IMG/VR virus record: IMGVR_UViG_3300037804_000252
Span: 24,700 to 88,699 of that record
Direction: 5' to 3' (one strand)
From: a virus
DNA length: 64,000 bases
The position numbers and the translations under genes were made by a program. How positions within the stretch are numbered: the stretch's first letter is position 1; every line of letters starts with the position of its first letter. This document shows, one piece after another, positions 8,733 through 64,000 of this stretch. The notes below the pieces were generated by a model, which ran no database searches, had not been told where the DNA came from, and saw only the letters and a list, made by a program, of their open reading frames with translations.

Positions 8733-8816
8733 TGTGTTTTTATCCTATAATAATATATGAATATACGATAGCATACATCGTATATAAATATAAGTTAATT
8801 TTGATTTCCTAAATTT

Positions 8817-57437: not shown

Positions 57438-58292
57438 TTAATCACAATGTACATCTTCTGCTATTAGTTGTCTTCTAAAGTCATTGATGTACTGGTCTAC
57501 ATTAAATGCATAAAGTTCATCATCTGGTAGTGATGCTTTTACTACATTTTGTAATGAGGTATCTCCACTGAGTAAATCGGTTACACTATCATCTTCTACA
57601 TATTCAGTTTGTGTATTTGATAATTGATTCAATTCAGAAACAACATCACTATCCGATTGTTGGATTACAGGTGGTTCACTTCCATCTTGAGATGGAAAGT
57701 TTATATTTGGAATAGGAATAGATGGTGGTACTATATACCCACTCCACACTATAACACCAGGTGATGGTATTGGTGATGGTACTGATGGGTATAATGATGT
57801 TGTTTGTATAATTCCACTAATTGAAAACAAGTGTACAATTGCTGCTAATACAAACATATTAACCATTATAATTTGTTTACTAGCAGGTTTAATTGGTGGA
57901 TATATAGGCCAAACACCTGGTGATGTTACGATATTAGAGTTTACTTGTAAATTTTGTATCGAACCTGGAGCAGGTATTAGTGGTATTGGGAATGGTCTCA
58001 TTTGTGCTCCTGACCAATATGCTTTGACCCCATTACCAAATTCGTTTACCAAAGAAAACGGGGCACCAGGTGGAGAGGTTACTCCCTTTAACAATGCTGC
58101 TCTAAAAAGAGTTTTCATTATTTCTAAATTACCTGTTTGAATTGATTCTAAATTAATAAAATCCTTTCCTCGTTTTACTGCGGCATCATATTCAGTTGCC
58201 CAAACAGTTGCAACCTCATTTATATCCAATGAGGGGTTTCTGTTTGGATTAGTTTTTCGTAGTACATTCCGTGTGAATAAAGACCAAGACAT
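57438..58292 (-). CDS. Hypothetical Pro-rich baseplate-cluster protein
   Basis: 284 aa ORF in operon downstream of the gp5-like gene. Confidence 0.5.
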   Translation of the reverse strand: MSWSLFTRNVLRKTNPNRNPSLDINEVATVWATEYDAAVKRGKDFINLESIQTGNLEIMKTLFRAALLKGVTSPPGAPFSLVNEFGNGVKAYWSGAQMRPFPIPLIPAPGSIQNLQVNSNIVTSPGVWPIYPPIKPASKQIIMVNMFVLAAIVHLFSISGIIQTTSLYPSVPSPIPSPGVIVWSGYIVPPSIPIPNINFPSQDGSEPPVIQQSDSDVVSELNQLSNTQTEYVEDDSVTDLLSGDTSLQNVVKASLPDDELYAFNVDQYINDFRRQLIAEDVHCD

Positions 58293-59940: not shown

Positions 59941-60336
59941 TTAACTTTCTATTTTTTGTTTTACTTCCTCTATTTCATTTTGAATATCATCGATTTTTGC
60001 AACTTCATCTTGAACTTGTTCAATCTCTGAAAGTAATTGTTCTCTTTCGGCATCCGTAAGATATCCAGTATCTCCTTCTGATTTTTGATTGGATGCAATA
60101 ATTCTTTGTGCGATAGTTGCTAACTTAACCAACTGGTCATCGTTACGAACTGATGTATCAATTAAGTCTTTGATGACTGGACCTAAGATTCCCATATCAC
60201 CATTATGCCTAATCATTTTTCTGATTTCAAAAATTACTTCTGAAATGTGTTTCTTTTTATTTATTTGATTGTTGTAGATATCCTCAAACAACCCACTAAG
60301 GTTTTTTCCTGGGAATAATTCGAAATCTGTTGCCAT
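59941..60336 (-). CDS. Hypothetical helical protein
   Basis: 131 aa; late box 60365-60372 upstream. Confidence 0.55.
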   Translation of the reverse strand: MATDFELFPGKNLSGLFEDIYNNQINKKKHISEVIFEIRKMIRHNGDMGILGPVIKDLIDTSVRNDDQLVKLATIAQRIIASNQKSEGDTGYLTDAEREQLLSEIEQVQDEVAKIDDIQNEIEEVKQKIES

Positions 60337-60394
60337 AATTAGTTTATCAATATTGTGTTCAATATATAAATATCAATAAACAAAAAAGTGGGTT

Positions 60395-60925
60395 TTATTT
60401 GTTCTTATAGAAGTACTCAAGAATATCCTTTTCCAACATATAATCCATTACAAAGTTATCACCATACATAATACTGGTAAATGTTCCTGTACCTTCTTCG
60501 GTAATTTCAATTACATAGTCTACCTCATTATAAGTAACCTCATAACTTTCGGATTTTCTAACTCGTTTAATACTCCTATGTTCATCGGTTCTTTCAATAA
60601 CTTCCCTATCACTTAAATCGGGAACATTAATAAGTTTGGTTACACACTTAGCATAATTCGTTTTAAGAGTGTCTACGAAGAAGATATCATTCATACTACT
60701 CATTAGATACAATCGTTGTTTAGAATCCAAACCACCTGCCTTAAAATTACCTGTGAACTGAACGATGGGTAGTTTTAATAAAAAGTTTTGTGTATCTTCT
60801 CGTAGGGTATTAAAATCTACGATAGAACTGATATGATGTGGTTCTGATACTTCTCTATCAAATGGTATGGATAATACATCATAGTAAGTTTCCACACTAA
60901 CTTTATCTATGATTTGAGAACTCAT
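60395..60925 (-). CDS. Hypothetical protein, last gene of the kinase operon
   Basis: 176 aa, starts 2 nt after the previous stop. Confidence 0.55.
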   Translation of the reverse strand: MSSQIIDKVSVETYYDVLSIPFDREVSEPHHISSIVDFNTLREDTQNFLLKLPIVQFTGNFKAGGLDSKQRLYLMSSMNDIFFVDTLKTNYAKCVTKLINVPDLSDREVIERTDEHRSIKRVRKSESYEVTYNEVDYVIEITEEGTGTFTSIMYGDNFVMDYMLEKDILEYFYKNK

Positions 60926-60927
60926 CT

Positions 60928-61500
60928 TTATTCTTTTTCAGTTGCGTACTTTACACCCATAATCGTACCAACGATTGAGAATGCGTTAGTTAAGAGAATA
61001 CCGAACATATTACTCCAAGTAGAACCTATGATTTGTGTATCAGTACCAGAAATTAATGCTAAACCATACATAACAGTTGTAAGAACACCAACACCAACAA
61101 TTACATAAAGTGCAACTTTTACAATTGTACTGATTAACTCAAATTGTGTTTTCTTTTGCATTAGTTCCAAATCTTCTAATGCTTTATCCTTTCCTTCTTC
61201 GGCTTCTTCTTTCAGTTGGTTTGCTTCTTCCAATGCTACTTTGAGTTCTTCCATCAAAGCATCATTTTCTTCTTGTTTAGCAACTAACTCTTTGTTTTGT
61301 TTTTGAACTTGTTTGGTAACTTGTAATCTTTTTCTACGAGCAGTAGAATCCTTTTCTTTACATAATTTAAGGTATTCCTCAAACTCGGTATCCCCATCGG
61401 GTGCTTTTAAGAGTTTAAGGAAATTTCCTTCAACATAAACTTTCTTTTTCTTAACAACACCTAATAGGATATCTCTGGTATGTTTCGTAACCTCAATCAT
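60928..61500 (-). CDS. Coiled-coil protein with two C-terminal transmembrane helices
   Basis: Charged heptads then VALYVIVGVGVLTTVMYGLALI and MFGILLTNAFSIVGTIMGV. Confidence 0.65.
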   Translation of the reverse strand: MIEVTKHTRDILLGVVKKKKVYVEGNFLKLLKAPDGDTEFEEYLKLCKEKDSTARRKRLQVTKQVQKQNKELVAKQEENDALMEELKVALEEANQLKEEAEEGKDKALEDLELMQKKTQFELISTIVKVALYVIVGVGVLTTVMYGLALISGTDTQIIGSTWSNMFGILLTNAFSIVGTIMGVKYATEKE

Positions 61501-61508
61501 TGTAAAAC

Positions 61509-61955
61509 TTATTTATAAATTTTGAATGGAGCGGTTCGGTTTAGATATCCTTCATAATCTTTTCTGAATTCTTCTAATCGAGGTTCAATATCATCCGATT
61601 TAATAATCCAAAATTGTGCACCTGCCGATTTTGCTTTTACAATTTCTTGATTATCATCTGATGATGAGATGATACCAATTACACATCCGTTACCATATTC
61701 AAAATTGATTTTACGAATAAGTTCAATACCATCATATGAAGAACCGATAATATTCAAATCTACGAATACACATTCGGGTCTTTCATCTGCAGGGTTTTCA
61801 GGAAACCATTGTTTGAATTTTTCATCTGCTTCATCAGATGAATTTAGTGCCTCTAAAGATAGAGTGATATCCAAGATACTACAAGCATCTTCAAATACCA
61901 AGTGGAATAAGTCCTCATCATCCACTAACAAGATTGAGTTAATCATTGTGTTCAT
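61509..61955 (-). CDS. Stand-alone response regulator receiver domain
   Basis: ILLVDDE, phospho-acceptor FVDLNI, DGIELI, ISSS, conserved Lys in GAQFWIIK. Confidence 0.9.
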   Translation of the reverse strand: MNTMINSILLVDDEDLFHLVFEDACSILDITLSLEALNSSDEADEKFKQWFPENPADERPECVFVDLNIIGSSYDGIELIRKINFEYGNGCVIGIISSSDDNQEIVKAKSAGAQFWIIKSDDIEPRLEEFRKDYEGYLNRTAPFKIYK

Positions 61956-63184
61956 TTTAATTTAATTTTTAATTTTGTACCAGAGTCTAACTTCTCTGCA
62001 GTTATCTTAAAACCATGTTCTTTCAAAATTGCGATACAAATGTTTAATCCCAATCCTGAACCTCCTTCTTTTTGTCCTTCTTTTCTTGTATATGGTTTAG
62101 ATAACGTAATGAACTCTTCATTAGTAATACCTCTACCATTATCTTCCACACAAATTGTAGAATCATTTTCCATATAAATTTTAACCATCTTTGTACTACT
62201 ATCATTATACTTTAATCCATTTCTGATTAAGTTATCTATTGCTGTACAAAAGAGTGGTTCGTTTACTTCAGTAAATGGTAACCTCTCTATTTTAACTTGT
62301 GAAACATAAGATGTAGAGGATAAGTAATTTCTCAGTATTTCTGATAAGTTACATTCCTTCATATCTAATTGTGCATCTTCTTTAACTAAGTTTGTAAATT
62401 CTTTAACACCAGCGTAAACCTTTTGTGTGTGTTTCAATCCTTCTGCTAACATCCTTAGTGGAGCATCAATTTTTAATTGTTTAATTTTTTCTTCAGATAA
62501 TCTTCTTTGTAGTGATGATAATCCTCTTGGCATATATGTGTTGATACCACTATGCATATCATGTCGGAGAATCTTTGCAGCGTGTTCTAAGTAAGAGTTT
62601 TTCTGATTAACTTCTACTTCTGCTAGGTGTTGTAATGTTGTATCGGTTGCTATCTTTAGAACTTTATCGTAACCACCCTTTATACCCTTAATAGGAGTAT
62701 AGTTACCAAATAACCAACGAGATGTTCCATCCTTTGCTATTCGTTCAAATTCACCACTTATATTTTCTCCTCTTTTTAATCTCTGCCAAAACTCTCTATA
62801 TTCCAAACTTTCCCCATATTGCTTTGGAACCATATTCTTATGTGCCTTATGTTTTAATTCCTTTTCGGTAAACTTAAACGTATTACGAAACTTTGAATTG
62901 GATTCTATTATATATCCATCCATATCCAACATTACAACTAAGTTTGATTTATCAATTGCTGCTAATTGTAAATCAATATTCTTTTCTTTGAGTTTTGTAC
63001 TTTTGATGAAATTATATATGACATAAGAAAATGGTGGTATAAATAGAATTATACAACCATATCCAAATTCGGCTAAAAGATAAGAAGGTTCAAGCCATCT
63101 AAATATAATACAAGTTTGTACTATAAAAAAGATGAATATAATAGAACCTGCTATGCCTAAACATATTTTTGCGAACTTATTCAT
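61952..63184 (-). CDS. Membrane-anchored PAS/PAC sensor histidine kinase
   Basis: Two N-terminal TM segments; PAS/PAC (GEFERIAKDGTSRW...ATDTT); H-box RHDMHS; NLIRNGLKY, EDNGRGI and GSGLGL boxes. Confidence 0.9.
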   Translation of the reverse strand: MNKFAKICLGIAGSIIFIFFIVQTCIIFRWLEPSYLLAEFGYGCIILFIPPFSYVIYNFIKSTKLKEKNIDLQLAAIDKSNLVVMLDMDGYIIESNSKFRNTFKFTEKELKHKAHKNMVPKQYGESLEYREFWQRLKRGENISGEFERIAKDGTSRWLFGNYTPIKGIKGGYDKVLKIATDTTLQHLAEVEVNQKNSYLEHAAKILRHDMHSGINTYMPRGLSSLQRRLSEEKIKQLKIDAPLRMLAEGLKHTQKVYAGVKEFTNLVKEDAQLDMKECNLSEILRNYLSSTSYVSQVKIERLPFTEVNEPLFCTAIDNLIRNGLKYNDSSTKMVKIYMENDSTICVEDNGRGITNEEFITLSKPYTRKEGQKEGGSGLGLNICIAILKEHGFKITAEKLDSGTKLKIKLK

Positions 63185-63218
63185 AAATGATTTATAATTC
63201 TTTAATGATTATAAATAT

Positions 63219-63279: not shown

Positions 63280-63492
63280 TTACTTTTTAATTGCTCCCTT
63301 AGACATGCCACTAGTTCGCGGTTTTCTTTTTTTAGGAGTAGAAACTGCTGCCTTAGAATTTCCACTTTTAGTAAAAGTTGATTTTGAAGAGCCACTTCCT
63401 TTTTTAGTCTTTGGAGTTTTCTTTACAATTTTTTCACTTACTAATTCCTTGGGTGAAAATAGGCTTTTTAACCAGTTAATAATTTTTTTCAT
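63280..63492 (-). CDS. Small basic protein with amphipathic N-terminus
   Basis: MKKIINWLKSLF then Lys-rich tail; own late box 63516-63523 and downstream terminator. Confidence 0.55.
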   Translation of the reverse strand: MKKIINWLKSLFSPKELVSEKIVKKTPKTKKGSGSSKSTFTKSGNSKAAVSTPKKRKPRTSGMSKGAIKK

Positions 63493-63523: not shown

Positions 63524-64000
63524 TTATTGAGGAGCGTAAGATAACCAAGTAGTTACAATATACTTGTTATCTGATAAGGGAGTGTGGCCTTTATGGACAA
63601 ATGGGAATGACGCAGGGTGAATTAATAATTGACCTTTTTTAGGTTTTACTTTTAATCCTGTATATAACATTTCGGTTTCTCCACCTTCTTCAACATCATT
63701 TAGGTATAAAATAAATACAAACAACCTACGTGACATTTCAAATGTTCCGGTTTCGGCATGCCATCCATTATAATGACCCTTGTTTTTATCATACTTTTGG
63801 ATTTGCATTAATTCGTAAAAAGTAGTATTATAAAATAATTCACCTTTTCCAAATTCTTCTTGATAAGGAAGTTGACCTAAAAACTCTTCTGAGAGGATTT
63901 CATTAAATGCATTATTAATTACATCAACATATGTTCCCATTACTTCAGGGAATTCATACATATTAAGATCTGTAGTTAATTTAACATTATTATCAACACC
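63524..64000 (-). CDS. 2OG-Fe(II) oxygenase (N-terminus beyond window end)
   Basis: GWHAE, LYLNDVEEGGET, HKG and KY motifs; frame stays open to the window edge (GVDNNVKLTTDLN before the track's Met). Confidence 0.85.
   Translation of the reverse strand, partial: GVDNNVKLTTDLNMYEFPEVMGTYVDVINNAFNEILSEEFLGQLPYQEEFGKGELFYNTTFYELMQIQKYDKNKGHYNGWHAETGTFEMSRRLFVFILYLNDVEEGGETEMLYTGLKVKPKKGQLLIHPASFPFVHKGHTPLSDNKYIVTTWLSYAPQ

Follow-up and report, generated by a model that had tools for sequence, protein, structure and literature searches.

A phage-borne histidine kinase-receiver cassette with a coiled-coil membrane hairpin protein as its candidate output

The window analyzed in this work, i.e., a stretch of 64,000 nucleotides, is the right-hand 64 kilobases (kb) of the 88,699-b virus record IMGVR_UViG_3300037804_000252 of IMG/VR (positions 24,700 to 88,699; CheckV completeness of 44%). 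All long open reading frames (ORFs) of the window are located on its minus strand, and the record, encoding portal and baseplate wedge proteins within the window, comes from an uncultured marine phage. At positions 60395-63184 ORF calling distinguished four tightly packed, head-to-tail genes, which encode a PAS histidine kinase, a stand-alone receiver, a 190-amino acid (aa) coiled-coil protein with a two-helix membrane hairpin, and a 176-aa protein. Judged from sequence, this is an intact, phage-borne two-component system maintained by selection, which likely constitutes a functional relay ending at the hairpin protein. For the reading as a whole, namely a working, phage-owned relay with a protein and not a promoter as its output, in which the hairpin protein would control the timing of lysis, we estimate a probability of about 0.5, and this seems to be the best single reading of the locus. 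An initial annotation, made from the letters alone, had described the same gene set (a PAS kinase, a lone receiver, a coiled-coil protein with two transmembrane (TM) segments, and a hypothetical protein), overlapping or 2-8 nucleotides (nt) apart, and both the composition (by ORF calls, Pfam and hydropathy) and the spacing (Table 1) agree with that description.

The identity of the output was approached through longer relatives of the hairpin protein. There are 806 of them, and among the 120 listed, 111 contain PAS families, seven contain GAF, and two contain neither. One fused protein, P0134, contains two PAS domains that share 35-37% identity with the PAS domain of the window kinase (E 3e-20 and 2e-18), and its C-terminal 118 aa align with residues 71-188 of the window 190-aa protein at 61% identity (E 3e-47); single-PAS hairpin fusions occur too. 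Moreover, none of the five genomes with fused forms (95-100% complete) encodes a Response_reg or a HATPase_c domain, whereas the record of the window has exactly one of each, and five records of the trio type (kinase, receiver and hairpin genes) carry one hairpin gene each. The distribution of the fused forms and that of the kinase/receiver pair are complementary, and the same type of sensor appears to have been joined to the same coiled-coil/hairpin module in two ways, either by direct fusion or via a kinase and a receiver. The PAS/GAF fusions together with this complementary distribution are the strongest evidence concerning the target of the receiver and, because of them, the hairpin protein is the best candidate for it, as had been proposed in the initial annotation; the contact would involve its N-terminal approximately 70 residues, i.e., the part replaced by a sensor in the fused forms.

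When 1.84 billion proteins were searched with a profile of the C-terminal module of the hairpin protein, only 122 representatives (50% identity level) were recovered, and of the 55 of them that were scanned (the longer ones, chosen by length), five contain PAS and one contains GAF. Single matches to FecCD, Rpb1_5, GT2, TsaD, and SOUL were set aside, as they are most likely chance matches to coiled-coil or TM regions or gene-call chimeras. It is also worth mentioning the 458-aa protein P0122, whose N-terminal part resembles, by eye only, the 284-aa protein of the baseplate block of the window (57438-58292) and is followed by a full-length hairpin protein; the protein may be a genuine fusion, or else a product of faulty gene calling.

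The AlphaFold model of the 190-aa protein (predicted local distance difference test (pLDDT) 81.8) comprises a small N-terminal domain (residues 1 to approximately 36), a 114-residue helix (37-150), a three-residue turn, and a second helix (154-187). The long helix is predicted to be a coiled coil running into the first TM segment and the second helix to be the other TM segment, in line with the two C-terminal hydrophobic segments visible in the hydropathy profile (119-153 and 165-183). The membrane hairpin is the most conserved, nearly invariant part of the protein. The family is large, with 6,968 clusters (90% identity level, near length range), yet compact, given the 122 representatives mentioned above. 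Only four of 185,579 species genomes contain it, in each case as PAS-hairpin genes placed beside endolysin-type genes on small contigs of metagenome-assembled genomes; these contigs are most likely phage DNA, and the family is essentially virus-only. Neither the 190-aa nor the 176-aa protein matches any family in Pfam, PHROGs or NCBIfam. The names found on some members, i.e., 'Fe2+ transport system protein B' (JGI) and 'GLE1-like' (Atlas), were set aside as unsupported by the family searches. Screening with PADLOC gave no match for the kinase, the receiver or the 176-aa protein, and one weak match of the coiled-coil type for the 190-aa protein (LeoBC, E 0.0016).

The kinase matches PAS_3 (residues 93-178, E 9.7e-10) and HATPase_c (residues 312-409, E 9.5e-15) in Pfam, the whole PAS domain spanning about residues 73-190, and it has no HisKA match in that database. 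Its H208 aligns with the H-box histidine of the solved histidine kinase chain 8f71_A. The H-box itself, LRHDMHSGINTY, lacks the usual proline, which had been pointed out in the initial annotation, and is invariant in 63 unique members of the family, as are the N, G1, and G2 boxes. Hydropathy indicated one strong N-terminal segment (residues 2-33), and a second TM segment is presumed. Since the membrane anchor is short and the periplasmic loop almost nil, the PAS domain should be cytoplasmic. Among solved structures, the nearest PAS domains belong to an aerotaxis receptor (8dik_A, E 2.5e-8) and to 3ewk_A (MmoS; E 2.7e-8), both of which are flavin-binding redox sensors. Some distant trios (L208:7770-9545, as well as L209, L211, and L215) encode kinases of far greater length (592 and 707 aa), which have additional sensor regions at the N-terminus. 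A GAF-hairpin query led to these loci, and the cassettes of L208 and L212 adjoin endolysin-type genes.

The receiver matches Response_reg only (32.3 bits at a Pfam cut-off of 30.2), and no output domain is present among its Pfam matches, which fits the earlier description of the operon as lacking a DNA-binding output. The acidic pair, the phospho-acceptor D65, the Ser/Thr residue and the lysine are all invariant in 62 unique relatives. Single-domain receivers act on varied targets by protein contact. A search of the 185,579 species genomes gave no match to the receiver, although such a scan reaches close relatives only and thus does not show a viral origin of the gene.

Conservation of the system was analyzed on a larger scale in IMG/VR. 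At least 595 relatives of the kinase were found (595 of 600 matched stretches encode one), and within the best 80 of these stretches they are 57-93% identical to the window kinase. The order kinase-receiver-hairpin on one strand is retained in all 69 unique trios, with the 4-nt overlap between the kinase and receiver genes present in 49 of them. In 50 of the 69 trios the receiver gene is directly followed by the hairpin gene, and in the other 19 the two are separated by one or two genes encoding membrane proteins: in all 19 (L041:7661-8161, L068, and 17 others) by a gene for a 166-aa multi-TM protein with a C-terminal coiled coil, and in four of these also by a gene for a 193-aa membrane protein. 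Conservation of the gene order, raised as a check in the initial annotation, was thus found for the first three genes; the 176-aa gene is present in 38 of 78 trio loci. The median ratios of nonsynonymous to synonymous substitution rates (dN/dS), calculated against unsaturated relatives, are 0.19 for the kinase, 0.08 for the receiver (the most conserved gene of the set), 0.11 for the hairpin protein, and 0.16 for the 176-aa protein. Because the catalytic motifs are invariant and dN/dS is as low as 0.08-0.19, the set is not a degenerate capture of host genes. The H, N, G1, and G2 motifs of the kinase are intact, and the genes are linked in every unique trio; the initial annotation therefore stands on all three points on which it could have failed.

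Concerning deposited phages, a nucleotide search with the cassette gave no match, 18 records matched the kinase protein, but only in part and through generic kinase or PAS similarity, and the fused form matched through its PAS domains only. The view that complete kinase-regulator pairs are uncommon in phages holds, therefore, for deposited phage genomes and not for uncultured ones, with their at least 595 kinase relatives and 6,968 hairpin clusters. The closest cultured relatives of the virus by baseplate protein, i.e., Microcystis phage Mel-JY01 (43%) and Flavobacterium phage immuto (38%), are not among the deposited-phage matches to the kinase or the hairpin protein. Near-identical DNA was detected in 14 sequencing runs (at least half of the sampled words), all of them labelled as seawater, marine, estuary or viral metagenome. 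RNA runs contain only small shares of the locus (0.09-0.16). Each of the four genes is nevertheless covered in part by contigs which come from four metatranscriptome libraries and are 88-99% alike. One of these contigs (61484-62128) comprises the end of the kinase gene, the whole receiver gene and the start of the hairpin gene, while another (60772-61194) bridges the junction of the hairpin and 176-aa genes. This is a weak hint of an operon, as such contigs may stem from DNA carry-over and indicate presence, not proven transcription, and the parts of the locus without cover are uninformative.

The suggestion that the system serves lysis comes from gene neighbourhoods. ORFs were called and clustered in 215 loci, and the tallies were made on non-redundant ones (66 fused and 78 trio loci). 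An endolysin-type gene is located no more than four genes away in 59 of the 66 fused and in 43 of the 78 trio loci, although the counted loci are related to one another and the tallies are not independent events. Four of the recurring neighbour clusters are recognized in Pfam as Peptidase_M15_3, Phage_lysozyme, GH19 with PG_binding_1, and PG_binding_1 with Amidase_2, and the fifth (PG_binding_1) matches PHROG endolysin families. A recurring holin-family neighbour was distinguished as well (Phage_holin_4_1, 22.3 bits at a cut-off of 22.2; phrog_199 holin, E 1.6e-7). As hairpin genes are associated with five different types of endolysins, a role in lysis can be argued. The 190-aa protein resembles holins in being a small phage membrane protein with two C-terminal hydrophobic helices, and its 190 aa, with a 120-aa cytoplasmic part, exceed the typical holin size.

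A number of observations weigh against a lysis clock of this kind. In the phage's own lineage the cassette abuts a baseplate module (the order downstream of the hairpin gene in the window and its closest relatives being the 176-aa gene, the 131-aa gene, and the baseplate block). In G001, a complete close relative of 252,603 b, the cassette is located at about 48-50.8 kb, and the only endolysin with PG_binding_1 and Amidase_2 is encoded at approximately 169.8 kb, among replication genes and approximately 120 kb from the cassette, while the usual small membrane neighbour of the hairpin gene is found at approximately 208 kb (a 75-aa homologue, 71% identical). The 176-aa gene is present in 38 trio loci, and in no more than 12 of these is an endolysin-type gene found at a distance of up to four genes. 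None of the holin and antiholin families of Pfam, PHROGs or NCBIfam is matched by the hairpin protein, and no cultured phage carries its family (no match among 50,697 deposited phage records). A Response_reg domain fused to the hairpin was not found among the 55 scanned representatives. Finally, the residues of Aer that bind flavin adenine dinucleotide (an Arg-His-x-Asp stretch) are not conserved in the alignment of the kinase PAS domain, in which the conserved Trp after the PAS loop is retained; since these loop residues are not kept, a redox or energy state as the PAS signal is only a reasoned guess.

The distance between the cassette and the endolysin gene in this lineage does not contradict a role in lysis, since T4-like phages usually have scattered lysis genes. 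The locus of the window, taken by itself, does not however establish such a role, and the earlier proposal that the system times lysis draws on gene neighbourhood in other phage lineages and not on the phage's own, with its baseplate neighbours and its distant endolysin gene. Phage_lysozyme, Peptidase_M15_3 and the holin-family neighbour were sought in G000-G004 without a match. As for the region at approximately 208 kb in G001 (L233:1513-2732), the 75-aa homologue is followed there by genes encoding a 196-aa coiled-coil protein and a 104-aa protein, the latter spanin-like, with an N-terminal TM helix and a coiled coil, and these genes may form a separate small lysis cluster.

The relay may be envisaged as follows. 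The kinase, anchored in the inner membrane by its short N-terminal segment, would read a cytoplasmic signal, most likely redox or energy state, through its Aer/MmoS-like PAS domain. It would then autophosphorylate on H208 and pass the phosphate to D65 of the receiver, which would in turn bind the small N-terminal domain of the 190-aa protein. The long coiled coil would transmit the resulting change to the two-helix membrane hairpin, the presumed effector, most likely acting as, or on, a holin-type membrane lesion and thus adjusting the time of lysis. In its most general form the idea, put forward tentatively and with somewhat less than even odds, would be that of a virus-only effector hairpin wired to PAS/GAF sensors either by fusion or by a kinase and receiver of its own, together making a post-translational lysis clock which reads the redox or energy state of the host.

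It is possible, although clearly less probable than control of lysis, that the relay ends at the hairpin protein and governs some other membrane process, such as superinfection exclusion, blocking of incoming DNA, or tuning of membrane potential or transport. Small two-TM phage proteins are known in exclusion functions, and many of the lysis-cassette neighbours include a separate holin-family protein, so that the hairpin would not be needed as the hole-former; the lack of a holin or antiholin family match and the approximately 120 kb between endolysin and cassette in this lineage point in the same direction. What is hard to explain without a role in lysis is the proximity of 59 of 66 fused and 43 of 78 trio loci to five types of endolysins, and the scattered lysis genes of T4-like phages make the distance weak evidence.

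Considerably less likely is that the receiver acts on host proteins (of motility, division or two-component partners) and that the membrane protein is a mere co-transcribed neighbour. Single-domain receivers do contact varied targets, and a receiver-hairpin fusion was not found among the 55 representatives. Against this stand the absence of the kinase and receiver from all five near-complete genomes with a sensor-hairpin fusion, the homology between the sensor of the fused forms and the PAS domain of the kinase, and the gene order kept in 69 of 69 trios.

The boundaries of the cassette were also analyzed. On its upstream side, the terminator predicted in the initial annotation was found as a terminator-like hairpin with a T-run (63244-63225), which closes the upstream unit composed of a 2-oxoglutarate (2OG)-Fe(II) oxygenase gene and a 70-aa ORF. 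Downstream of it lies an 8-mer reading TATAAATA on the plus strand and TATTTATA in gene sense; the late box of T4 is the reverse complement of TATTTATA, so that the window motif does not have the T4 form. There are 13 copies of the motif in the window (450-63523), including those at 8783, 11043, 17506, 32725, 39901, 57408, 60365, 63210, and 63516. Twelve of the 13 lie wholly in intergenic DNA, which makes up 3.5% of the window, and 11 of these 12 are placed 20-51 nt before a called gene start, while the copy at 450-457 has no called ORF from which a distance could be measured. Because of this placement, the motif is a recurrent, genuine signal of the phage. Several virion genes are among the genes preceded by it, as is the baseplate unit that follows the cassette. 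The motif is a candidate promoter element shared with virion genes, a late expression of the cassette is suggested by this shared motif only, and the cassette is probably transcribed here together with virion genes. What stands of the earlier claim of a phage late box before the kinase gene is, therefore, a recurrent intergenic motif. The exact motif occurs within 70 nt upstream of the kinase gene in only four of 68 unique relatives, for which reason it was rejected as a part of the module.

Nucleotide homology to the closest relatives (L011, L013, and L009) begins exactly at the start codon of the kinase gene, and the DNA upstream of it is unrelated; the left edge of the cassette (63184-63197) is thus a mosaic junction. 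An ORF for a 62-66-aa two-TM protein directly precedes the kinase gene in 31 of 68 unique relatives; in its place the window has the Lys-rich 70-aa ORF, the terminator and the motif. This small protein (e.g., L041:5781-5969 and L228:11800-11988) has a conserved Cys-Pro-Ser-Lys stretch and no Pfam or PHROG family; some other relatives have different small membrane ORFs at the same place. Since homology stops at the kinase start and the upstream genes differ among relatives, the cassette behaves as a mobile module. Identity to L011 is uneven within it (88% for the kinase, and 99% for both the receiver and the 176-aa protein), which suggests recombination inside the module. A conserved 239-aa protein (L010:4923-5642), without a Pfam match and with one weak PHROG match (E 0.0072, unknown function), is encoded ahead of the cassette region in close relatives; speculatively, it may be a late sigma-like factor.

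These boundaries bear on another explanation, i.e., that in the T4-like lineage the cassette serves virion assembly, for instance membrane-linked assembly of the baseplate or tail. The cassette would be transcribed with baseplate genes and is placed directly upstream of them, a baseplate block being adjacent in 14 of the 78 non-redundant trio loci; it shares the intergenic motif with virion genes, and in P0122 a baseplate-like part (by eye only) is joined to the hairpin protein. We consider this explanation improbable, slightly more so than the one involving host targets, as the trio occurs elsewhere in unrelated contexts and baseplate genes follow it in the closest relatives only; moreover, a junction exactly at the kinase start is what is expected for a mobile module, and P0122 is a single cluster that may be a gene-call artefact. 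That the set is a decaying or functionless remnant of host origin, as the missing HisKA match, the unusual H-box and a receiver barely above the Pfam cut-off might suggest, is very hard to reconcile with an H-box and other catalytic motifs invariant in 63 unique sequences, dN/dS of 0.08-0.19, hundreds of viral relatives and no close cellular receiver in a scan which reaches close relatives only.

The general features of the cassette and its surroundings are presented in Table 1. The 176-aa gene occupies the first position after the hairpin gene in 47 of 49 tallied loci. Its product is predicted to be a soluble, two-domain protein (pLDDT 83.7) and is under purifying selection. It has only 106 close clusters, and searches in PADLOC and the Atlas, in addition to the three family databases mentioned above, gave no match. 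Among structural comparisons, the best Foldseek match in PDB had an E of 0.15, BFVD yielded two unnamed viral proteins (E 6.6e-7 and 3.4e-6), and the best Z of the wide VIA-align search (5.2) is below the level which is meaningful for this tool. We propose that the 176-aa protein is an accessory one. At the other side of the cassette, the contig ends approximately 40 nt past the first ATG of the oxygenase ORF.

Table 1. Features of the two-component cassette and adjacent DNA (window coordinates; DHp, dimerization and histidine phosphotransfer domain).
Feature	Position	Strand	Remarks
131-aa gene	59941-60336	minus	start of the baseplate unit downstream of the cassette
Next intergenic motif copy	60365-60372	minus	precedes the 131-aa gene by 29 nt; marks where the cassette ends on the right
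Fourth gene	60395-60925	minus	176 aa; 2-nt gap after the hairpin gene; soluble two-domain orphan (predicted)
Coiled-coil membrane hairpin protein	60928-61500	minus	190 aa; 8-nt gap after the receiver gene; putative output
Stand-alone receiver	61509-61955	minus	148 aa; 4-nt overlap with the kinase gene; conserved C-terminal tail of about 25 aa
Histidine kinase	61952-63184	minus	410 aa; N-terminal membrane anchor, cytoplasmic PAS (predicted), DHp with H208, ATP-binding domain
Intergenic motif copy	63210-63217	minus	reads TATTTATA in gene sense; precedes the kinase start by 26 nt
Terminator-like hairpin	63244-63225	minus	8 pairs (6 G-C), loop of 4, then T-run
Lys-rich 70-aa ORF	63280-63492		upstream of the cassette; no family match
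2OG-Fe(II) oxygenase	63524-63961		upstream of the cassette; phrog_61, E 2e-30

The cassette was also compared with known systems. Like bacterial two-component systems with CheY-like receivers, it has a kinase core of the class I type (a DHp histidine followed by Asp, and N, G1, and G2 boxes) and a receiver that retains every phospho-acceptor residue and lacks an output domain, which implies an output by protein contact. Unlike the bacterial single-domain-receiver systems, it is encoded by a virus, its kinase is not CheA-like and has an H-box without proline and no HisKA match, and the presumed partner of its receiver is an essentially virus-only coiled-coil membrane hairpin. The PAS domain of the kinase can be compared with the sensors of the Aer/MmoS/NifL kind, being closest to 8dik_A and 3ewk_A and, as in Aer, apparently membrane-anchored yet cytoplasmic; in contrast to Aer, the output is a kinase (or a membrane hairpin in the fused forms) and not a signalling domain of methyl-accepting chemotaxis proteins.

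Two systems related to lysis are relevant here as well. In T4 lysis inhibition, which involves the holin T and the antiholins RI and RIII, a phage-encoded input likewise modulates the timing of the lesion, as would be the case here, and the lysis genes are scattered. There is, however, no sequence relation, the hairpin protein matching no PHROG family, and the input here would be a cytoplasmic PAS/kinase/receiver chain or a fused PAS/GAF sensor instead of a periplasmic antiholin domain. The LytSR control of CidAB/LrgAB in Firmicutes also ties a two-component system to holin-like proteins and to the energy state of the membrane, but LytR is a DNA-binding transcription regulator, whereas the phage receiver has no DNA-binding domain and its link would be post-translational. 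The phage system differs also in being phage-borne and in having PAS with a HisKA-like core: families of the LytS type are absent from the six Pfam families matched, and neither the LytS-type His_kinase (PF06580) nor LytTR is among the Pfam matches of the kinase or the receiver.

We know of no regulator encoded by the phage in the agr set of phage phiCDHM1. The nearest precedent found is this very phage, which carries agr genes, including one for an AgrC-type histidine kinase, in its genome (PMC3901668). Compared with that host-like quorum-sensing cassette, the present set comprises a complete kinase-receiver pair and an essentially virus-only output protein. Within the accessible parts of the literature retrieved, neither a phage kinase-receiver pair with a membrane output nor a sensor-fused holin-like protein is described. 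The new part would be the virus-only, non-transcriptional output of a two-component system.

The wait before lysis sets the burst size and fitness of a phage, and the known lysis timers are holin-intrinsic or, in T4, responsive to superinfection. If the proposed relay is true, many environmental phages would sense the condition of the cell they infect and time their exit to match, and the membrane hairpin would join the short list of non-transcriptional two-component outputs. Should the hairpin gate or delay a holin lesion, it would represent an undescribed mode of lysis control and an undescribed class of two-component outputs in abundant marine and freshwater phages. A family that is so large, yet absent from 50,697 deposited phage genomes, exemplifies a blind spot of culture-based phage biology, and the parts of the cassette are small and easily expressed, which makes the idea directly testable.

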